Sequence record: SRR31156797_7476
DNA length: 34,800 bases
Reading direction: 5' to 3' (one strand)
Part shown: one piece after another, positions 23,689 to 33,327 of the stretch
Layout: each line of letters opens with the position of its first letter
How positions within the stretch are numbered: the first letter of the stretch is position 1
The notes under the pieces: generated by a model
The model's database searches: none
Seen by the model: only the letters and a program-made list of their open reading frames with translations
What the model was told of the DNA's origin: nothing
Translations under genes and position numbers: made by a program

Positions 23689-24304
23689 GGACGCAATGAC
23701 CGCACGGCAGGCAGGGTTTGTCCTGTGCCGGAAATGCCGTCTGCTGAGTGACCAAAAAGCGGTTGAAATCGATAACCATTGCCCCCGTTGCGGCGTGCGC
23801 CTGCATCTGCGCAAGCCTGAAAGTCTGGCGAGAACCTGGGCCCTTTTGATCACCAGCTTTATTCTTCTCTTCCCCGCCAATCTGCTCCCCATCATGACCG
23901 TGACCTATTTGGGCGAGAAGGAACCCAACACCATTATGCAGGGTATTGAATACTTTATACAATCCGGCACCTATATGATTGCGTTTTTGATTTTTTTCGC
24001 CAGCATCCTGGTTCCCATATTCAAGGTGGCGGGCATTATGTTGGTGCTGCTATCCATCCAGAGAAAATGGACAGGAAGGCTCAGGCATAAAACCTTGATG
24101 TTCAGAATGATCCGGTTCGTTGGACGCTGGTCCATGCTGGATATCTTCGTCATCGCCCTTATGGTGGCCATGGTGGAGTTCGGGACTTTGAATTCCATAC
24201 AAGCAGCGCCCGCTGCCACCTATTTTGCAGGGGTGGTGGTCTTTACCATGCTGGCTGCCAACACATTCGATACACGGCTCATATGGGAGGAAACGGACCG
24301 ATGA
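23681..24304 (+). CDS. PqiA/LetA-family membrane protein, C-terminal half
   Basis: CRKC...CPRCG, RKPESL-RTWAL, PANLLPIM, GRWSMLDIFV, FDTRLIW; overlaps the previous gene. Confidence 0.9.
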   Translation: MSRDAMTARQAGFVLCRKCRLLSDQKAVEIDNHCPRCGVRLHLRKPESLARTWALLITSFILLFPANLLPIMTVTYLGEKEPNTIMQGIEYFIQSGTYMIAFLIFFASILVPIFKVAGIMLVLLSIQRKWTGRLRHKTLMFRMIRFVGRWSMLDIFVIALMVAMVEFGTLNSIQAAPAATYFAGVVVFTMLAANTFDTRLIWEETDR

Positions 24305-26013
24305 AGGATGATCTTTTGGCAACCGGTAATATCAGCGAGCCGCAGCCCAAAAGCCGTCAAGGCATTTCACCCATCTGGATTCTGCCTTTGGTAGCCCTTA
24401 TCATCGCCGGTTGGCTGATCTATAAAAGCGTTGTGGATGCCGGTATCAACGCGGTGATTACATTTGCCACGGCCCAGGGTATTGAAAAGGGGAAAACCCG
24501 GGTTCTATTTCGCGGTACGCCTGTGGGATTGGTGAAGGATCTGGCCATTAACAAGGATTTCAAAGGGGTTGATGTTCAGGTGGAATTCGTCAAAAGTGCC
24601 CGAACCCTTCTTGCAAAAGATACCCGCTTCTGGATGGTGGAACCCCGTATTTCCACCCAGGGAATCACCGGATTGGAAACCATTTTAAGGGGCAATTATA
24701 TCGGCATGCTCCCCGGGAAAGGCGAAGAGGCCCGTAAATTCACCGCCCTTTCGGAGCCCCCGCCCATGACATCCACTGAACCCGGACTTCAGATTCAGCT
24801 GGCGGCAAATAATCAGGGTTCTTTAACCACCGGCAGTATGGTTTATTTTAAAGGGATTGAGGTGGGCAGGATTCAGCGATGTGCTCTGGGAAAGGACAAC
24901 AATGTGGTTATTGACGTCTTCATTCGCAAGGAACACGCCCCGTTACTGAAGAAAAGTTCACGGTTTTTCAGCGTGAGCGGTATCACGTTGGAAGGGGGGC
25001 TTTCCGGTTTTAAGATTCGCGCCGAGGCCCTCAGTGCTCTGGTGAAAGGGGGTATTGGGTTTTTCACTCCGGGAGGCGGAAAAGGGCTCCAAAATGCCCA
25101 AAATGGTGATGTATTTCATCTGTTTGAAACTAAAGATGCGGCGCTTCAGGAAGGGAGCTGGATTACCCTTACCTGTGATGACGGCATGGGGATTTCCAGC
25201 CAGACCCTTATTAAGTACCGGGGGCTGGAAATCGGCAGGGTTTCCGAGGTCAACCTGGATCAAAAGATGTCCCACGTGGTGATCAAAGCATCCGTTCAGT
25301 CGAAATATCAAACGCTTATGCGGGAAGGCACGGAATTCTGGCTGGTTAAACCGAAACTGGGGCTCGCCCATGCCAAGAATCTGGAGACCCTGATCACCGG
25401 TACCTATTTTGCTTTGAAACCCGGCAGGGGAAAGCCGAAACGGACCTTTACGGTTCTCGGGAAAGCGCCTGAAACCATTATTTTGAGAAAAGGCCTCCAG
25501 ATCACCCTTGAAGCGGAAAGGCTGGGCTCCATCAAACCGGATGACCCGGTCTATTTTCGCCAGATAAAGGTGGGAAAAGTAACCTACTGCCGTTTATCAG
25601 AAAATGCTACTTCCGTTTCAGTGGGTGTGGATATCGAAAGCCGTTACGCTAAATTGGTACGCAGTGATTCAAAATTTTGGAAAGCATCGGGTATTGACAT
25701 GCGTTTCGGGCTTTTCAGCGGGGCCGAGGTGAAAACCGAATCCCTTGAAGCGATGCTGGAAGGGGGCATCGCTTTTGCCACCCCCGGGAAACATTCCGAA
25801 AACGCCACGGTTTCCAAAAATCCCACAGTTTCCAGCAAAAGCAGGGGCGTGGAGCTGGATGAAAACGGGTCAGAAAAAAAGCCTTCCCCAAACGGTTCCA
25901 AAACATCGTCCCCGTCGGGTCGAGCCGCACGAAAAGGTGATAAATTCATCCTCCATGACAAACCTGAAGATGCGTGGCTCAAGTGGCGACCCGTCATTAT
26001 GCTGCCCGGATAG
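24301..26013 (+). CDS. MCE-domain lipid transport protein, LetB/YebT-like, with four MCE repeats
   Basis: ISPIWILPLVAL TM, then four MCE starts (ITFATAQG.., IQLAANNQGSL.., ITLTCDDGMGI.., ITLEAERLGSI..); ends F-LHDKPEDAWLKW. ATGA overlap at 24301. Confidence 0.9.
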   Translation: MKDDLLATGNISEPQPKSRQGISPIWILPLVALIIAGWLIYKSVVDAGINAVITFATAQGIEKGKTRVLFRGTPVGLVKDLAINKDFKGVDVQVEFVKSARTLLAKDTRFWMVEPRISTQGITGLETILRGNYIGMLPGKGEEARKFTALSEPPPMTSTEPGLQIQLAANNQGSLTTGSMVYFKGIEVGRIQRCALGKDNNVVIDVFIRKEHAPLLKKSSRFFSVSGITLEGGLSGFKIRAEALSALVKGGIGFFTPGGGKGLQNAQNGDVFHLFETKDAALQEGSWITLTCDDGMGISSQTLIKYRGLEIGRVSEVNLDQKMSHVVIKASVQSKYQTLMREGTEFWLVKPKLGLAHAKNLETLITGTYFALKPGRGKPKRTFTVLGKAPETIILRKGLQITLEAERLGSIKPDDPVYFRQIKVGKVTYCRLSENATSVSVGVDIESRYAKLVRSDSKFWKASGIDMRFGLFSGAEVKTESLEAMLEGGIAFATPGKHSENATVSKNPTVSSKSRGVELDENGSEKKPSPNGSKTSSPSGRAARKGDKFILHDKPEDAWLKWRPVIMLPG

Positions 26014-26028
26014 AGGCGCCTTTGAATC

Positions 26029-27339
26029 ATGGAAAAGACCCTTTCCCGGGACCGGCTAATTATTTTCGGGCGATATCCCGTGCCCGGAAAAACCAAGACC
26101 CGCCTGATCCCCGCCCTGGGACCGGTCGGCGCGGCCGATCTTCAACGCCGCTTGACGGAAAAAACGTTTCTTTCAGCGACCGAATTTGCGGCCCGTTATA
26201 AAACCACCATTGAATGCTGTTTTGAAGGGGGTACGCCCCAAAAGATAAACCGCTGGCTCGGTTCCATTCCCAGGTTATCTTTTCAGCATGCAGGTGACTT
26301 GGGTCAACGAATGCGCTTTGCCCTGTTTGACGCCTTGAATGAAGGAAGCAATCGGGTGGTTTTGGTGGGGACGGACATTCCGGGGGTAAACGCGGAAATT
26401 CTGGCGCAAGCCTTTGGTGCACTGCTGGAACACGATATTGTTCTGGGACCCAGCACGGACGGGGGATATTGGCTTATGGGTTTGAAACGGCCCATTGACC
26501 TTTTTCAGAATATCCATTGGAGCTCACCCAAGGTTCTTGAGCAGACCCTGGCACAGGCCCGGCACATGGGGCTGACGGTCCGTCTTCTCCAATTTCTATG
26601 GGATGTGGACACTCCTGAAGACTTAGGGAGATGGCGTCTTGAAGAAAATGTACCGGAGTTTTTTTTAACGGTTGTGATACCGGCCTTTAACGAGGAAAAC
26701 CATATCCGCCGGGCCATTTTGAGTGCAACAGGCCGGGACGTGGAAGTGATTGTGGCGGATGGGGGAAGCACCGATGGCACGGTCAGTGTGGCAGAATCCC
26801 TTGGCGTGCGCGTTATCCACTCCCCTTTGGGTCGCGCCAGGCAGCAGAATTGCGGGGCCGCTACGGCAAAGGGTGAACATCTGCTCTTTCTCCATGCGGA
26901 TACCCGTCTGCCCGAAGACTATGTGATCCAGGTTTTTGAAACCCTTTTGGCACAAGGAACGGTAATGGGCGCTTTTCGTTTCAAGACGGATTTTCGCCAT
27001 CCCCTGATGCGGCTTGTGGAGTGGATGGCCCACCTGCGGGCAAAATATTTGCGGCTTCCCTATGGAGACCAGGCGATTTTCATGAAAAAGGCGATTTTTG
27101 AAAGGGCCGGTGGCTTTCCCGTTGTTCCCATCGGGGAAGACCTTTTTCTGGTACGCCATCTGGTCAAACACGAAAATGTGCAGGTGCTCATGGCAAAGGG
27201 AGCAGCCGTCACATCGGGGCGCCGATGGAAAACCATTGGGCCCCTCAAAACCACATGGATCAACCAACTCATGTTGATGGGCATGATCATGGGGATTTCC
27301 CTTCAAACCCTGTCCCGTCTTTACCGAAGGTCATTGTGA
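26029..27339 (+). CDS. Fusion of DUF2064/TIGR04282-type transferase and TIGR04283-type GT2 glycosyltransferase
   Basis: N-half: P-PGKTKTRL, Q-GDLGQRM, VGTDIP, LGPSTDGGYWL-G, WS, DVDTPEDL. C-half: VVIPAFNEE, DGGSTDGT, GRARQQN-GA, LLFLHADT, PYGDQ, EDL, TSGRRW. Confidence 0.88.
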   Translation: MEKTLSRDRLIIFGRYPVPGKTKTRLIPALGPVGAADLQRRLTEKTFLSATEFAARYKTTIECCFEGGTPQKINRWLGSIPRLSFQHAGDLGQRMRFALFDALNEGSNRVVLVGTDIPGVNAEILAQAFGALLEHDIVLGPSTDGGYWLMGLKRPIDLFQNIHWSSPKVLEQTLAQARHMGLTVRLLQFLWDVDTPEDLGRWRLEENVPEFFLTVVIPAFNEENHIRRAILSATGRDVEVIVADGGSTDGTVSVAESLGVRVIHSPLGRARQQNCGAATAKGEHLLFLHADTRLPEDYVIQVFETLLAQGTVMGAFRFKTDFRHPLMRLVEWMAHLRAKYLRLPYGDQAIFMKKAIFERAGGFPVVPIGEDLFLVRHLVKHENVQVLMAKGAAVTSGRRWKTIGPLKTTWINQLMLMGMIMGISLQTLSRLYRRSL

Positions 27340-27426: not shown

Positions 27427-28137
27427 ATGAAAGCGTCCCACCCAAACAAGGAATTTGAAGTCCTTTATGAAGAACTGGGATATACATTCAGGGACCCTGC
27501 CCTGGTCCTCCAGGCATTTCGGCATTCCTCCTATGTGAATGAACAGATGGGTGCCGGCCTTGAAGACAATGAGCGCCTCGAATTCCTGGGAGATGCCGTG
27601 CTCGATCTGGCCATCAGTCATTTGCTCATGGAAAAAAACAGGGATGCCGATGAGGGGGAACTCTCCAGATTCAGATCCATGGTGGTGGATGAAGCAGGGC
27701 TTCATGATGTTGCCACAAGGCTTGAACTGGGTCGTTATTTGCTTTTGGGAAAAGGGGAAGACCAGAGTCTCGGCAGGCAAAAACCGTCTATCCTTGCGGA
27801 CGTTACCGAAGCCCTTATCGGGGCCATTTATCTGGATGGCGGATTTGATGTTGCCAAAAAGATCATTGAGAAACTCTTTTCGCCACTGTTAAAGAAGGTG
27901 CGAACGGACGATCTGGTCCAGGATTTCAAGAGCTTGCTGCAGGAATTTACCCAGCAGGCGTTCAAAAGTCTTCCAAAATACCGGCTTACGGAAGAAACCG
28001 GGCCTGCACACGACAAGGTGTTTCGTATCGCTTTGGCTGTTAACGGCATGGTTTTGGCCGAGGGGATGGGAAAAAGCAAGAAAGAGGCTGAACAGCATGC
28101 GGCAAAGGAGGCGTTTTTGCGCCTGAAAGAAGATTGA
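27427..28137 (+). CDS. rnc: Ribonuclease III
   Basis: Signature NERLEFLGDAVL, EALIGAIYLDGG, dsRBD KS-LQE..GPAHDK-F..GKSKKEAEQ-AA. Confidence 0.98.
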   Translation: MKASHPNKEFEVLYEELGYTFRDPALVLQAFRHSSYVNEQMGAGLEDNERLEFLGDAVLDLAISHLLMEKNRDADEGELSRFRSMVVDEAGLHDVATRLELGRYLLLGKGEDQSLGRQKPSILADVTEALIGAIYLDGGFDVAKKIIEKLFSPLLKKVRTDDLVQDFKSLLQEFTQQAFKSLPKYRLTEETGPAHDKVFRIALAVNGMVLAEGMGKSKKEAEQHAAKEAFLRLKED

Positions 28138-29153
28138 GACCCCTGATTATCCCCATATTTATTTCCCATGCCGGATGTCCCCACAGATGCCTTTTCTGCG
28201 ACCAGGAAAAGATTTCCGCCCAACCATGTCATTCAATTGGCCCTCAACAGGTGTGCGAAACGCTGGATACGGCCATAGGTGCCAAAAGGTTTGATCCGAG
28301 CCGAAATACCGAGCTGGCCTTTTATGGCGGAACATTTACCGGGCTTAAAATAGCCCGCATGGAATCCCTGCTGAAAGCGGCGGCACCGTATGTGCATTCC
28401 GGAATGGTGAAATCCATCAGGATTTCAACGCGTCCCGATTCGCTGGATGAGCAACGCCTGGCGCTTTTGAAGGCATATGGTGTTACCACGGTGGAATTGG
28501 GCGCTCAATCCATGAATGACCGGGTCCTGGCACTTTCTCAAAGGGGTCATGCGGCCGGGGACACCGTAGCAGCGGTTCGAATGTTAAAGGAACACGGCTT
28601 CAAGGTGGGTATTCAGCTAATGCCGGGCCTTCCCGGCGATTCAAGTGAAGAATTCTTCGCCACCACCCGAAAGGTGCTGGCCCTAAAACCCCATATGGTG
28701 CGGCTGTATCCCGCCCTGGTGATAAAAGGGACCGGACTGGCCCGAATGTATGGGGAGGGGTCGTATCGACCCTTTTCTCTTAAGGAAGCCGTAGAGCTAT
28801 GTGTGGAAAGTGTCATTTTGCTTGAGGGAAATGGGATCCCGGTGATCAGGATCGGTCTTATGAGTTCGCCGTCGCTTCTGGATGAGGATCGCATCGTAGC
28901 AGGACCCTGGCACCCCGCCTTTGGATTTTTGGTCCGCTCGGCCATTCATTTCAGAGGCATTGCCCCAGATTTGCCGGTCCCCGGCGGGGCCCCATTGATC
29001 AAAATTTATGCCCCAATGCGGGAAATATCAATGGTAAGGGGCTATAAAAACAGGGGAATCAAGAAAATTGAACAAGAAACAGGGGCAAAGGTCATCTGTG
29101 TTGTGCCGGATGACACCGTTCCTCTGGGAAGGATTCGGTTAGAGAAGATATGA
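28134..29153 (+). CDS. Elp3/YhcC-like radical SAM protein
   Basis: IIPIFI-H-GCPHRCLFC, AFYGGTFT, STRPD, VELGAQS, QLMPGLPG, GPWHPAF. The TTG start overlaps the rnc stop and the stop overlaps the era start. Confidence 0.88.
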   Translation: MRPLIIPIFISHAGCPHRCLFCDQEKISAQPCHSIGPQQVCETLDTAIGAKRFDPSRNTELAFYGGTFTGLKIARMESLLKAAAPYVHSGMVKSIRISTRPDSLDEQRLALLKAYGVTTVELGAQSMNDRVLALSQRGHAAGDTVAAVRMLKEHGFKVGIQLMPGLPGDSSEEFFATTRKVLALKPHMVRLYPALVIKGTGLARMYGEGSYRPFSLKEAVELCVESVILLEGNGIPVIRIGLMSSPSLLDEDRIVAGPWHPAFGFLVRSAIHFRGIAPDLPVPGGAPLIKIYAPMREISMVRGYKNRGIKKIEQETGAKVICVVPDDTVPLGRIRLEKI

Positions 29154-30034
29154 GTTTTAAATCGGGTTTTATCGGCATTATCGGTCCACCCAACGTGGGT
29201 AAGTCGACCTTGTTAAACCGCATCATCGGGACGAAACTTGCCATTGTATCCCCCAAGCCGCAAACCACGAGAAACCGAATCCTGGGCGTTTTTCACCAGG
29301 ATGACTGCCAGATGGTCTTCATGGACACGCCGGGGATTCACCGAACACGGACGGCGCTTCACAAATCAATGGTTGATGCCGCTTTTGCCGCCTTTCATGA
29401 AGTGGACATTATTCTGATGATGATTCAAGCGGGTGCCCGTGAGGATCCCGCCGTTCCATCCATCATCAATGGTTTGAAATCAATTGAAAAACCCTTGTTT
29501 TTGGCCGTTAATAAAATTGATAAGGTTGAAAAAGAAAGGATTCTCCCGATTTTAGGGGATTATGGGGAAAGATTTCCCTTTGATGCCATGATTCCCATCT
29601 CAGCGCTCAAGGGCCATGGCGTGGATGCATTACTGCGCCAATTGAAATTGCGCTTGAAACCGGGGCCTGCGTTTTTTCCTTCGGATATGAACACCGATCA
29701 ATCGGAGGCGTTCATGGTTTCTGAAATTATTCGGGAGAAAATTTATCAATATCTCAGTCAGGAACTCCCCTATTCATGTGCCGTAACCGTTTTTCAGATT
29801 GAAGATGTGCCTGAGAAAAATCTGGTATCCATTGGGGCCGGAATCCATGTTGAAACCGAATCCCAAAAAGGTATCTTCATAGGCCGTGGCGGGAAGATGA
29901 TCAGAAACATTGGTCGTTCCGCGAGGCTTGAGTTGGAAGCGTTTTTCCAAGCAAGGGTCTATCTTGACCTGGCGGTACGTCTTGAGAAAAACTGGAGCAA
30001 AGACACCCGTGCTTTGAAACGGTTGGGATATTGA
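29150..30034 (+). CDS. era: GTPase Era
   Basis: FKSGFI-IIGPPNVGKSTL, PQTTRNRI, DTPG, NKID, ISALKG, EIIREK, ELPYS, KH domain IG-GG, LGY end. Confidence 0.98.
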   Translation: MSFKSGFIGIIGPPNVGKSTLLNRIIGTKLAIVSPKPQTTRNRILGVFHQDDCQMVFMDTPGIHRTRTALHKSMVDAAFAAFHEVDIILMMIQAGAREDPAVPSIINGLKSIEKPLFLAVNKIDKVEKERILPILGDYGERFPFDAMIPISALKGHGVDALLRQLKLRLKPGPAFFPSDMNTDQSEAFMVSEIIREKIYQYLSQELPYSCAVTVFQIEDVPEKNLVSIGAGIHVETESQKGIFIGRGGKMIRNIGRSARLELEAFFQARVYLDLAVRLEKNWSKDTRALKRLGY

Positions 30035-30061
30035 GGCCGGATTGCAGATTTTGGGAGACAT

Positions 30062-30094
30062 AAAAAAACCAACCCCGCAAGGCGAGGTTGGTTT
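30062..30094 (-). terminator. Intrinsic terminator, best on the minus strand and probably bidirectional
   Basis: Minus RNA AAACCAACCUCGC-CUU-GCGGGGUUGGUUU forms a 13-bp stem with one G-U pair and ends in a U7 run. On the plus strand the same pair is a C-A mismatch and the tail is UUUCUU. Confidence 0.85.
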
Positions 30095-30131
30095 CTTAGG
30101 AGGAAAGAGTAATTTTAAACTCTATATGACC
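30062..30131 (-). ncRNA. Predicted sigma54-dependent small RNA (~70 nt) with an anti-Shine-Dalgarno segment
   Basis: Lies between a -24/-12 promoter and a terminator and contains no ORF. Sequence: GGUCAUAUAGAGUUUAAAAUUACUCUUUCCUCCUAAGAAACCAACCUCGCCUUGCGGGGUUGGUUUUUUU. The 5' end is inferred from promoter geometry. Confidence 0.72.
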
Positions 30132-30141
30132 ATTGCTATAC

Positions 30142-30157
30142 TGCAATTAGCTTGCCA
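30142..30157 (-). promoter_or_regulatory. Sigma54 (-24/-12) promoter
   Basis: TGGCAAGCTAATTGCA: GG-N10-GC with both TGGCA and TTGCA elements. Confidence 0.85.
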
Positions 30158-30185
30158 AAAAAACCACAGGCTGTCAAATTTTCCA

Positions 30186-30198
30186 TAACCTATTGTTT
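30186..30198 (-). promoter_or_regulatory. IHF-like site
   Basis: AAACAATAGGTTA versus WATCAANNNNTTR (one mismatch), lying between the promoter and the enhancer-like sites. Confidence 0.45.
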
Positions 30199-30257
30199 TT
30201 TATGGGGTGAATTGGGGTTGACCATCTTTTTTAGTTTTATGACGGAAGACCGAAATA

Positions 30258-30273
30258 GTACAATATTTTGTAC
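30258..30273. promoter_or_regulatory. Putative enhancer (UAS) 1
   Basis: Palindrome GTACAA-tatt-TTGTAC centred about 134 bp upstream of the predicted start. Confidence 0.65.
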
Positions 30274-30334
30274 CAAAAATGCGCCTTAAAAAGCTTTACA
30301 GCTGCAAAACATTGAAATATTTAATGATTATCGA

Positions 30335-30350
30335 GTACAAGACCTTTTAC
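30335..30350. promoter_or_regulatory. Putative enhancer (UAS) 2
   Basis: GTACAA-gacc-TTTTAC, one mismatch to the UAS 1 palindrome, same flanks (a...ca), 77 bp away. Confidence 0.55.
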
Positions 30351-30352
30351 CA

Positions 30353-31717
30353 TTATAGGATGATGTTGTACTTTTTCATTTTGTGCTGAATCAGGCTTTT
30401 GGTTATCCCCAGGCTTTTGGCTGCGTGGGACTGAACATTGTTGGATTGGGCCAGGGCTCTTCGAACAAGCCTTTCTTCTATCTCTTCCATGGCTTTGGCC
30501 AGGGGGATATGGGCAGGGACAAATCGCTCCACATCGAATTCGGTTTCCGTGTCCACGAGTGTTTTCGGTAGATCATCCAGAGTGATAACACCGTCCGTAT
30601 GCAGCACCATGGCCCTTTCAATAACATTCTCCAATTCCCTGACGTTTCCCGGCCATGGGTGTGTGTAAAGCGCTTTCCATACTTCAGGGCGTAGCTCGAT
30701 TTTCTTTTGGCTATCCCCATCTTGAAATTTCTCAATGAAATGTTTTACGAGTAGCGGGATATCGTCTGTGCGCTCCTGAAGTGACGGTGCGTCGACGTGT
30801 ATCACATTCAGACGGTAGTAGAGGTCTTCACGAAATACCCCTTTTGCCACGTCCTCTTTGATGTTTCGATTTGAAGCTGAAAGGACGCGAACATCCACTT
30901 TGATGGTTCGGGTTCCCCCCACCCGTTCAAGCTCCATTTCCTGGAGGACCCGGAGGAGTTTAACCTGAAGGGCCGGCGGCATTTCCCCCACTTCGTCGAG
31001 AAAGATGGTACCCCCGTCCGCCAATTCAAATCGTCCTTTTTTCATGGCGATGGCCCCTGTAAACGCACCTTTTTCGTGCCCGAACAGTTCGCTGGCCAGA
31101 AGTGTTTCCGTGAGCGCCCCGCAGTTGATGGAAATGAGCGGTCTTTCTTTTCGGGGCCCCTGGTAGTGAATGGCTTTGGCAATGAGTTCTTTTCCGGTGC
31201 CCGATGGGCCGGTAATGAGAACCGACGCCTTGGAACTGGAGACCTTGTCGATGAGGTCATACACTTTCATCATCGGCTTACTTTTGCCCACCATATTGCC
31301 ATATCTGAAGCGATCGGAAAGGGCTTCCGCCAGCAGTCTGTTATCTTTCAACAGCCGGTGGTTCTCCATTGCCTTTTTTACCGTCAGCTTGAGCTTCTCA
31401 TTTTCAAATGGTTTCTGAATGTAATCATAGGCATGTTTTTTCATGGCCTCAACCGCCATTTCAATGGTTCCAAAGGCGGTCATCATGATGATGGGGATTT
31501 CCGGATTGATTTTTTTGCAAGTCTCAAGCAGTTCCATACCGCTCATGCCCGGCATTTTCATATCCGTGATGATCAGGTCGAGATCGGCTTCACGAAGGAT
31601 GCTGACAGCCATTTTGGCATCCCTGGCCGTTACGATTTCATACCCTTCAGCACCCAGAAGTGCTTCAAGCACAACGAGATAGTTTTTTTCATCATCAACA
31701 ATCAGGATGGTTTCCAT
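30353..31717 (-). CDS. NtrC-family sigma54-dependent response regulator (REC-AAA+-HTH)
   Basis: ILIVDDE, ITDMKMPGM, MTAFG, KPF; GPSGTGKE, SELFGHEKGAFTGA, FLDE, FREDLYYRL, WPGNVREL; Fis-type HTH. Start ATG 31717 with GGGAG RBS. Confidence 0.96.
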   Translation of the reverse strand: METILIVDDEKNYLVVLEALLGAEGYEIVTARDAKMAVSILREADLDLIITDMKMPGMSGMELLETCKKINPEIPIIMMTAFGTIEMAVEAMKKHAYDYIQKPFENEKLKLTVKKAMENHRLLKDNRLLAEALSDRFRYGNMVGKSKPMMKVYDLIDKVSSSKASVLITGPSGTGKELIAKAIHYQGPRKERPLISINCGALTETLLASELFGHEKGAFTGAIAMKKGRFELADGGTIFLDEVGEMPPALQVKLLRVLQEMELERVGGTRTIKVDVRVLSASNRNIKEDVAKGVFREDLYYRLNVIHVDAPSLQERTDDIPLLVKHFIEKFQDGDSQKKIELRPEVWKALYTHPWPGNVRELENVIERAMVLHTDGVITLDDLPKTLVDTETEFDVERFVPAHIPLAKAMEEIEERLVRRALAQSNNVQSHAAKSLGITKSLIQHKMKKYNIIL

Positions 31718-31748
31718 ATTTTTTGACTCCCTGAACAAAGAATCCGGA

Positions 31749-33194
31749 TTATCCCTTCGGTAGCCGAATAAGAACTCTGGTTCCCGTTTTTTCGGCATCG
31801 GATTCTTCATGATGGTTCTCGATCCATATGCCGCCCTTGTGGCCTTCGATGATATTGCGGACAATGGAAAGACCCAGGCCGCTTCCCTTGTCTTTGGTGC
31901 TGAAAAAAGGATCGAAGATCTTTTTCAAGTCTTTTTCACGAATGCCGCCCCCGTTATCTTCAATGATCACACGGTAATCATCTTTTTCTTGGGATACGCT
32001 GACTGAAAGGGTTCCGGCGTTTTCCATTGCTTGAATGGCGTTCATGAAAATATTTAGAAAAGAGCGGTAGAGCAAATGGGGATCTGCCCTGAGCGGCATG
32101 GGCTGATGGGACAATTTGTCCTCGAGTGAAATATTTTTGGTCTTAAGTTCCGCTTGTAAAAATTGTATGTTTTTGTTCAAGATTTCATCCAGATCACAGT
32201 TCTGAAAATGAGGTTCTTGCGGTCGGGCGAAGTCGAGGAATTCCGTAACAATATTGTTAAGCCGACTGGATTCTTCAACAATCAGGCCGGAGAGCTTGGC
32301 CTGTGATTTGTTGTCGGTCGACATGCTGCCCATCAGCTCGGCGGTGCTCCGAATGATTCCAAGCGGGTTTCTGATTTCATGGGATACGCCGGCAATCATC
32401 TCTCCCAGAGCCGCAAGCCGTTCCGACTGATTGAGCTGTGTTTCCAGCTCTCGTTGCTCCCTGGCTCTTTCAGCAATGGTTTTTTCCGCTTTGTGTACGA
32501 TCAGAAGAAGCGCCACAAAAATCATGCCCATGATCAGGATTGACAGACCGAAAATCAGATACTGAAATCGAACCAGGGATTCATATTCCTGCGTAAGGTC
32601 CTGTATCAATTCAAAGACGCCCAAAACATGCCCGGTGTCCCCCAGAAAAGGCCCTGCCCCCATGAATGGAATATAGGTCCTCAGCTTTTTTTCTCCCCCC
32701 GCTCGTTGAATACCGGTGCTCCATATGCCCTCTCCACCGGATACGAGTCTGGAAGAATTCTGGCCCAGAACCGCTTTTTTGTAGCCAAGGCTCTCCCGCA
32801 CTTTTTTTCCAATAAGATCGGGATCGGTGCTATAGGCGATAACGCCCTGGTTGATATCGTACATATTGACCAGATCGATTTTAAAGCTGTGGGTGGTATT
32901 TCGGACGATTCGATCCATCAAGGCCTGCTGTCGTTTTTCCCTTAACCGCATTTTTCCGAACTTTTGCGTGACGGGCAATACAAAATTTTGAAATACCTGG
33001 TGATTCAGGTTTTCACCCAGCAGCAGGGCGTAGGTTTCATGACTTTTCATGAGGATGTCTTTGGCACGTTGCGAAATGACCATGGAAAAGGGCAAACTGA
33101 ATATGATAAGAACAACAAAACTGGCATAGGCGAAAAACTTAACGAGCCTGAATTGTTTCCCCTTTGTTTCAGTTTTTTTATTTGGAAGCGGCAT
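31749..33194 (-). CDS. Membrane sensor histidine kinase (2 TM, periplasmic domain), cognate to the downstream regulator
   Basis: Two TM segments, H-box SHEIRNPL, N-box NIFMNA, DNGGGI, FDPFFSTK, GSGLGL. Start uncertain (33194, 33209 or 33281). Confidence 0.93.
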   Translation of the reverse strand: MPLPNKKTETKGKQFRLVKFFAYASFVVLIIFSLPFSMVISQRAKDILMKSHETYALLLGENLNHQVFQNFVLPVTQKFGKMRLREKRQQALMDRIVRNTTHSFKIDLVNMYDINQGVIAYSTDPDLIGKKVRESLGYKKAVLGQNSSRLVSGGEGIWSTGIQRAGGEKKLRTYIPFMGAGPFLGDTGHVLGVFELIQDLTQEYESLVRFQYLIFGLSILIMGMIFVALLLIVHKAEKTIAERAREQRELETQLNQSERLAALGEMIAGVSHEIRNPLGIIRSTAELMGSMSTDNKSQAKLSGLIVEESSRLNNIVTEFLDFARPQEPHFQNCDLDEILNKNIQFLQAELKTKNISLEDKLSHQPMPLRADPHLLYRSFLNIFMNAIQAMENAGTLSVSVSQEKDDYRVIIEDNGGGIREKDLKKIFDPFFSTKDKGSGLGLSIVRNIIEGHKGGIWIENHHEESDAEKTGTRVLIRLPKG

Positions 33195-33327
33195 CTTTTC
33201 CTTATACATAGGGTCGGCAGAGCCCGTTTCTTTTCTGTCCACATTCTTGCCGGGAAATAAAATTTCTGGTATTTTAAGCATTCGGACGGATCGTAGTCAA
33301 CAAGTAGGTATCAGAAAAGGCATCCAT

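Follow-up and report, generated by a model that had tools for sequence, protein, structure and literature searches.

A candidate sigma-54-controlled small RNA with complementarity to a porin start region in related genomes

The window analysed here, i.e. the whole 34,800-nucleotide stretch from sequence record SRR31156797_7476, contains a predicted small RNA (sRNA) gene, which is real as an observation and lies on the minus strand, though the original prediction gave its coordinates on the plus strand. The features of the locus are the following.

27427-28137, plus strand: rnc (RNase III), two genes from the sRNA, on the opposite strand
29150-30034, plus strand: era, converging on the sRNA terminator
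30062..30131, minus strand: predicted sRNA, ~70 nt; 5' end inferred from the usual sigma-54 spacing, 3' end in the U-run
30062..30097, minus strand: Rho-independent terminator; GC-rich stem core 30091-30069, run of seven U
30092..30113, minus strand: pairing region AUUACUCUUUCCUCCUAAGAAA, 22 nt, containing CUCUUUCCUCCUAA
30109-30096, minus strand: exposed seed CUCUUUCCUCCUAA, the seed of the original prediction
30106..30123, minus strand: small 5' hairpin, AGAGU (30123-30119) with ACUCU (30110-30106), 8-nt A/U loop
30143..30157, minus strand: sigma-54 promoter TGGCAAGCTAATTGC, -24 GG / -12 GC
30257..30274, minus strand: candidate upstream activator site, palindrome GGTACAAAATATTGTACT, 117 nt upstream of the promoter's TGGC
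30353..31864, minus strand: NtrC-type response regulator / sigma-54 enhancer-binding protein (longest ORF; Pfam)
31749..33281, minus strand: histidine kinase, 510 aa, HisKA and HATPase_c (Pfam)

The genes for the histidine kinase and the NtrC-type regulator lie directly upstream of the sRNA on the same strand. A hydropathy scan of the kinase gives two predicted membrane helices (approximately residues 46-70 and 238-262) around a periplasmic part of ~165 aa, and the regulator has a receiver domain, an AAA+ domain with GAFTGA and a Fis-type HTH (Sigma54_activat, 3e-70, Pfam). Because most orthologues of the regulator align from residue ~48-50, its true start is probably the ATG at 31717 (METILIVDDE). 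On the plus strand an operon of rnc, a radical SAM gene and era (27427-30034) converges on the sRNA terminator; upstream of rnc there are genes for a four-repeat MlaD-domain protein (24283-26013, plus strand) and a DUF2064 / glycosyltransferase family 2 fusion (26029-27339, plus strand). In several related loci (e.g. L044 and L054) the sequence after the terminator is similar to the complementary strand of the window's era at its 3' end, which suggests that these loci have the same convergent neighbour. A single metatranscriptome (0.05 share of words) yielded a 160-nt contig on era (29627-29786) alone, weighing neither way on sRNA expression.

The GG and GC elements of the promoter are 10 bp apart (TGGCA-N6-TTGC), the arrangement characteristic of sigma-54 promoters, and its TGGCA and TGC are invariant in 65/65 aligned homologues. 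By the usual sigma-54 spacing the sRNA would start near 30131, ~12 nt past the -12 GC. The candidate activator palindrome recurs in 42 of 66 loci in the form GTAC-N(4-12)-GTAC, mostly GGTACAA-N4-TTGTAC, and in most of these 42 it is situated ~113-118 nt upstream of the promoter, i.e. within the 80-200 bp expected of such a site. Further GTACAA / TTGTAC half-sites occur upstream in the window (30366-30371 and 30335-30340, minus strand), one of them inside the 3' end of the regulator gene, and in some relatives another complete palindrome is found ~193 nt upstream of the promoter. Matches to Sigma54_DBD identify rpoN in 5/5 related genomes.

Folding of 30133-30058 (minus strand) gives -28.6 kcal/mol with z = -5.6, a stability equalled by 0/200 shuffles, and the minimum free energy fold comprises the 5' hairpin, a mostly unpaired UUCCUCCU and the terminator. 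The succession of 5' hairpin, exposed pyrimidine stretch and terminator that had been proposed is thus present, on the minus strand; 3' of the ACUCU arm UUCCUCCUAA continues to 30096 and is followed by the terminator hairpin and U-run. The claim of an exposed seed holds for the last 7 of its 12 nt (CUCUUUCCUCCU; mean unpaired probability 0.70) but not for the CUCUU part, whose unpaired probability is just 0.20 because it is the 3' arm of the small hairpin. Across 65 homologues, those last 7 nt have a median unpaired probability of 0.90. The AGAGU/ACUCU hairpin is restricted to the closest relatives, and its 3' arm belongs to the pairing region, five nucleotides of which lie within the hairpin. 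Predicted homologues have a median length of 69 nt (range 50-81, n=65). As read from the sequence, the sole ATG of the sRNA opens a 3-codon frame. The whole transcript has no GGA motif, a single pyrimidine tract and no repeated motifs, in agreement with the earlier statement that it is not a CsrB/CrcZ-type sponge. With an A-tract on one flank and a U-tract on the opposite one, the terminator hairpin may act in both directions, serving era as well; the long U-run is that of the minus strand.

With the regulator protein as query, 80 loci were retrieved, all in MAGs labelled Desulfatiglandales, Desulfobacteraceae, "Candidatus Desulfacyla" or similar; in eight of them the downstream sequence was too short to judge. 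Among the 72 assessable loci, 66 have a sigma-54 promoter, a short variable leader, a pyrimidine seed and a terminator, in this order, ~200 nt past the regulator stop (one is cut by a contig end), and the module is absent from the other six (L075-L080), whose regulators are 54-63% identical. Of the order's 201 sampled genomes, 156 have the combination of promoter and seed, far more than expected by chance, given ~17 matches in all for the reversed control; mostly there is one copy per genome, at times two in tandem. A sample of the phylum gave the combination in 19/151 genomes, three of which belong to the same order and approximately five others of which look genuine. Where there are two copies, they are either in tandem ~450-560 bp apart, as at G057:C4:9306 and 9758 and at G120:C88:68711 and 69274, or on different contigs, and G353, G354 and G355 have two or three sRNA sites each.

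An alignment of 65 sequences has its invariant or near-invariant columns in the promoter elements and in the seed CTCTTTCCTCCT. In a seed-anchored register, which fits 57/66 sequences, most seed positions are conserved to at least 95% and the flanks drop to <60%; over alignment and register together the seed columns reach at least 90-95%, and the seed is the best-conserved part of the transcript, as had been anticipated, with a variable leader and terminator. A hairpin and U-run are present in 65/66 homologues with 36 different loop-proximal stem arms, and the stems vary with compensating changes. These terminators were folded one by one, because the terminator arms are misaligned in the MAFFT alignment, on which the single helix given by RNAalifold, three pairs within the promoter, is spurious. 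The variable 5' leaders have no conserved sequence but share a composition rich in A and poor in C, with runs such as CAAACAAA and GAAAACGAA. A fair degree of conservation is also seen in the A-rich linker and in CCAACC, with which the terminator stem begins.

CCUCCU is the anti-Shine-Dalgarno (anti-SD) sequence of 16S rRNA, and the original prediction envisaged a translational repressor with potentially many targets, naming fabH as a candidate in the window. The window has no exact complement of the seed besides the sRNA gene itself, an RNAduplex scan of it revealed no ribosome-site target that stands out, and fabH was rejected, with -15.4 kcal/mol versus -31.7 kcal/mol for the porin start region described below. 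No seed complement was found within 60 nt upstream of the kinase start, where feedback on the kinase was sought. In five related genomes AGGAGGAAAGAG (<=1 mismatch) was not enriched over the reversed control (48 vs 55, 44 vs 69, 14 vs 17, 42 vs 50 and 20 vs 17), which speaks against the idea of many targets.

The target work was done in relatives of the window's organism. A wobble-tolerant pattern followed by ATG singled out a recurrent site, UUUUUUUAGGAGGAGAGAGUAAUG, before a secreted protein of ~400-430 aa (G001, G004, G005 and G078), a porin as set out below. In the closest relatives the complementary start region reads UUUUUUAGGAGGAGAGAGUAAU(G) and pairs with 30113-30092; the predicted duplex of the window-type sRNA with it has 22 contiguous bp (2 G.U) and -31.7 kcal/mol. 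On the sRNA this duplex reaches from the 3' arm of the small hairpin to the A-tract that precedes the terminator, and on the porin mRNA it takes in the U-tract before the SD, AGGAGG, the spacer and the first two bases of AUG, such that the pairing extends past the seed on both sides.

When porin orthologues were located by protein search alone, blind to the start region, the best orthologue had the complementary start region in 11 of the 13 genomes with a readable 5' end (G001, G045, G057, G007, G012, G006, G017, G008, G058, G174 and G002), the site of G002 (L205) having one extra base, predicted to form a bulge in the duplex. G042, G039 and G142 were left out of the 13, the porin 5' end being unreadable. 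The two that do not match are G054, which has two sRNA copies and in whose closest orthologue (L134) the start region, GGGAGGGACC AUG, is unrelated, and G003, whose hit, in a 2.1-Mb MAG, is probably a paralogue. The porin proteins are 27-77% identical and their start regions almost alike; this conservation could partly mirror selection for high translation. In the set L131-L142 the start region is near-invariant while protein identity drops to 27-47%. Paralogous porins of the same genomes (L143, L144, L207 and L208) are without the complementary site.

Across the order, the start-region pattern occurs in 124/201 genomes versus ~30 control matches, a few of the pattern matches being the sRNA gene's own antisense strand. 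Thirty-two genomes were fetched for sRNA plus start region; 25 have a porin-like gene behind the site, and seven have other genes or no ORF there. Contiguous pairing of 14-22 bp is found in 25/25 sRNA-porin pairs, of which the pattern already demands 12 bp, so that the independent evidence in these pairs is the extension beyond the 12 enforced bases only. In G073, both strands of 800 kb of the 2.53-Mb genome (1.6 million positions, excluding the sRNA gene's own antisense strand) served as background, and the porin start region is the best site, with a longest contiguous match of 18 bp compared with 16 bp for the next, and, by a thin margin, with -30.6 versus -30.4 kcal/mol for the next, a G.U-rich site. 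The sRNA and porin genes are 17.6 kb to 1.09 Mb apart, and the RNA would therefore act in trans.

Outside the core, the partners have matched changes: AUUAC:GUAAU in most pairs, AUCAC:GUGAU in G048 and G066, AGC:GCU in G058, AUAGC:GCUAU in G073 and AAC:GUU in G115 and G041. When the 22 distinct types of pair are averaged, cognate partners share 17.9 bp at -28.4 kcal/mol and non-cognate ones 17.2 bp at -27.0 kcal/mol (permutation p = 0.009 for bp and 0.0008 for energy, values that relatedness can inflate). The cognate advantage of 0.7 bp / 1.4 kcal/mol is real but small, because both partners are so conserved.

Divergent seed types provide a stronger test than this comparison. In type B (loci L068-L074, regulator ~51-56% identical) the sRNA has CUUCUUCAUUUGCUUUCCUCCUGUUAG, and a 400-aa porin homologue in G349 has the start region CUAACAGGAGGAAAGCAAAUGAAGAAG, which gives 27/27 bp and -50.2 kcal/mol; the match comes from one of five type B genomes, and the G349 porin as query found no homologue (E <= 1e-20) in the other four, which are MAGs of 1.9-3.2 Mb. 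In type C (L063-65 and L071) the sRNA has AUCUCUUUAUCUCCUU, and porin homologues in G304 and G354 begin with AAGGAGAAAAAGAGAUG, pairing over 8+8 bp with one mismatch; this match was obtained in two of five genomes searched, four of which carry the type C seed. Sites with AAGGAGAAAAAGAG are present in G353, G355 and G354, and only that of L273 (G354) is at a gene start; L270, L271 and L272, where the sites are at no gene start, were rejected as type C targets. Each of the three divergent seed types thus matches a porin start region of its own genome, type B in G349 and type C in G304 and G354.

The target protein matches Pfam Porin_4 (PF13609) with 28.6 bits against a cut-off of 27. An AlphaFold model from 13 orthologues (pLDDT 67, pTM 0.69; pLDDT 30 for a single-sequence model) has as its top Foldseek PDB matches general 16-strand porins throughout, i.e. 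DcaP, Omp38, PorB, Omp32 and OmpF, with E values of 1e-14 to 1e-10. The target proteins also have a signal peptide ending in ...VPAMA and a C-terminal ...GVQFQITF, an aromatic beta-signal. Profile, modelled fold, signal peptide and beta-signal thus all point to a general 16-strand porin.

A search for Hfq (PF17209), which had been suggested as a check, found none in five related genomes, one of which consists of a single contig of 5.2 Mb, with a control detecting it in 5/14 known genomes, and ProQ was likewise found in 0/5 related genomes. At the gathering score Rfam gave 0 matches in the whole window (Qrr, MicF, GlmY, CrcZ, Pxr and all others), and up to E = 10 in 29950-30400 it gave sub-threshold, chance-level matches only. 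We found no description of this sRNA in the literature.

These results make it very probable that the sRNA works by base pairing and that what it pairs with is a ribosome-binding site of the AGGAGG(A/G)AGAG type; this part of the original prediction stands, whereas its reading as a general anti-SD regulator with many targets has support only in part. The reading we favour, with a probability of about 0.72, is of a sigma-54/two-component-controlled, trans-acting sRNA of ~70 nt that represses one 16-strand porin in a MicF-like circuit. It builds on the observed gene anatomy, the order-wide conservation and, in relatives, the complementarity to and co-variation with the porin start. A membrane histidine kinase with a periplasmic sensor part would control the adjacent NtrC-type regulator, which, bound at the upstream palindrome, would activate the sigma-54 promoter and hence transcription of the sRNA. 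Its region AUUACUCUUUCCUCCUAAGAAA would then pair with the translation initiation region of the trans-encoded porin mRNA, and the duplex would keep the 30S subunit off this mRNA, lowering porin synthesis. The window's own organism presumably carries the same porin gene; if so, its own Porin_4 start region would read ...UUAGGAGG(A/G)AGAGUAAUG. We infer that neither Hfq nor ProQ takes part; a long perfect duplex that forms with no chaperone and is perhaps cut by RNase III appears plausible.

Since the duplex lies on the SD and start codon, a block of initiation is the most likely effect, and we take the RNA to repress rather than activate the porin. The sign of regulation is not given by pairing alone, and the sRNA could instead raise porin expression by nuclease protection or by opening an inhibitory fold; that the duplex covers the SD and the first start-codon bases in every pair makes this very improbable, and in characterised cases, according to the accessible part of one report, a duplex over the SD and start codon blocks initiation (PMC10117139).

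Among the other explanations, the one that deserves most weight, unlikely as it is, takes the sRNA for a general anti-SD regulator, whose CCUCCU mimics the 16S tail and damps many AGGAGG-type mRNAs, the porin being merely the strongest. The seed does contain CCUCC, and GGRGGRRRGRG with ATG within 0-6 nt is commoner than the reversed control in the five related genomes (35 vs 6, 14 vs 9, 14 vs 9, 32 vs 15 and 20 vs 7), with several matches preceding envelope genes (TorF-like, TonB-receptor-like, lipoproteins and an OprB-like porin). Such enrichment is, however, what any SD-like motif before ATG gives, and the full 12-mer complement is not enriched. Moreover, the non-porin matches have 11-13 bp and approximately -20 to -23 kcal/mol without flanking match, compared with 17-22 bp and approximately -31 kcal/mol for the porin pairs, and conservation and co-variation reach bases outside the SD, something that a generic anti-SD would not need. 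A CCUCC-containing seed is thus not to be taken as a sign of a general anti-SD regulator, the specificity being carried by the flanking bases.

We give very little credence to the proposal that the RNA is a sponge or decoy, with a protein or another RNA as its partner rather than an mRNA start site: its pyrimidine-only, single-stranded and well-conserved tract and A-rich leader could be a protein site, but such a site occurs only once, GGA and repeated motifs are absent, neither Hfq nor ProQ was found as a possible partner in the five related genomes, and a protein site leaves the matched changes in the porin starts over three seed types unexplained. Least probable of all is that there is no functional RNA, the hairpin being the era terminator and the promoter-like and pyrimidine motifs DNA-level signals. 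Although the hairpin has a flanking A-tract and could end era transcripts, the activator site, promoter, seed and terminator recur in fixed order opposite era (66 loci, 156/201 genomes), the long U-run is on the minus strand and the stems change with compensation.

The favoured porin-repressing reading can be extended, tentatively and with a good deal of doubt, to an order-wide one-sRNA/one-porin circuit without Hfq or ProQ, of inverted-duplicate origin, with at least three co-evolved seed types and RNase III cleavage. The single-stranded body of the sRNA would in its entirety be antisense to the ribosome-binding site and start codon of the porin gene, its 17-27-bp duplex would be cut by RNase III (gene 27427-28137), and these anaerobes would use the circuit to set the permeability of their outer membrane. 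Read on the antisense strand, the sRNA genes (L249-L253; 30096-30125, plus strand, in the window) give AGGAGG, a spacer and ATG AAG AAA (AGGAGG..ATGAAGAAA), a resemblance to the start of the porin gene which suggests a possible origin of the sRNA gene by inverted duplication of the start site of its target.

MicF and MicC of enterobacteria are porin-repressing sRNAs connected with EnvZ-OmpR and other envelope regulators. The OmrA/OmrB sRNAs of enterobacteria repress outer-membrane proteins, as described in the available text of one source (PMC2588501). Like these, the proposed sRNA is trans-encoded, two-component-controlled and pairs at the start region of an outer-membrane porin, and the window-type target shares the 16-strand porin fold of OmpF, the MicF target. 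As in MicF-like sRNAs, there are a promoter and terminator of its own, no ORF and an accessible seed that is the best-conserved part; the conserved, co-varying complementarity to an SD and start codon that also marks the class is predicted here in relatives. The sRNA differs from MicF, MicC and OmrA/OmrB in having no sequence or Rfam relationship to them, in its sigma-54 promoter and NtrC-type activator (OmpR and sigma-70 for the MicF type), in that Hfq was not found in its relatives, in its far longer uninterrupted duplex of 17-27 bp and in having apparently one dominant target.

CrcZ-CbrB and Pxr-PxrR are examples of sigma-54-dependent sRNAs beside the gene for their enhancer-binding protein. 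Qrr-LuxO and GlmY-QseF/GlrR are others, according to the portions of the reports accessible to us (PMC10162802, PMC8745638). The window shares with them the order kinase, regulator, sigma-54 promoter and sRNA, with an activator site for the neighbouring regulator; unlike them, its sRNA has no Rfam match and a different target class. It is neither a protein sponge like CrcZ nor a decoy like GlmY, and it is usually present as a single copy per genome, whereas Qrr genes are multiple. In its proposed function the sRNA is like MicF-ompF and OmrA/OmrB, and in its layout like Qrr-LuxO and GlmY-QseF.

A further parallel in layout is found in Desulfovibrio vulgaris Hildenborough, where ncRNAs lie downstream of the sigma-54 regulators DVU0679 (Dv_sRNA2) and DVU0653; the accessible passages of the two papers state their function as unknown and propose no target (PMC3333781, PMC4641369). 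There, so far as those passages go, a regulator binding just 3' of its own gene drives a sigma-54 ncRNA, a likeness of layout alone, and the ncRNAs come from the same phylum-level neighbourhood as the window's sRNA; DVU0679 has GAYTGS, and the window's regulator GAFTGA. The present results may suggest a concrete target for Desulfovibrio sigma-54 RNAs beside response regulators. With respect to the target, NcS25 of Burkholderia cenocepacia is described, in the accessible part of the report, as a conserved sRNA that is predicted to target a porin start region, SD included, the predicted target being conserved as well (PMC10117139). It has no sequence relationship to the window's sRNA. According to the same accessible text, ncS25 is constitutively expressed with no sigma-54 motif upstream, and it is the promoter of its porin that resembles a sigma-54 site (PMC10117139); NcS25 was accordingly rejected as a sigma-54-dependent porin sRNA.

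If correct, the proposed circuit would be the first functional assignment of an sRNA in these largely uncultured sulfate-reducing, aromatic-degrading anaerobes. It would also mean that sigma-54 components were used independently to assemble the familiar chain of envelope sensor, sRNA and porin, in a lineage that yielded neither Hfq nor ProQ. A duplex of this length with co-evolving sides is well suited to compensatory-mutation tests. Seed complements of 11-13 bp also occur at other start sites (L082, L119/L108, L120, L116, L121 and L129), mostly of envelope proteins, including an OprB-family porin, a TorF-like protein, a TonB-receptor-like protein and lipoproteins; they could be secondary targets, or the match could simply reflect a strong ribosome site.
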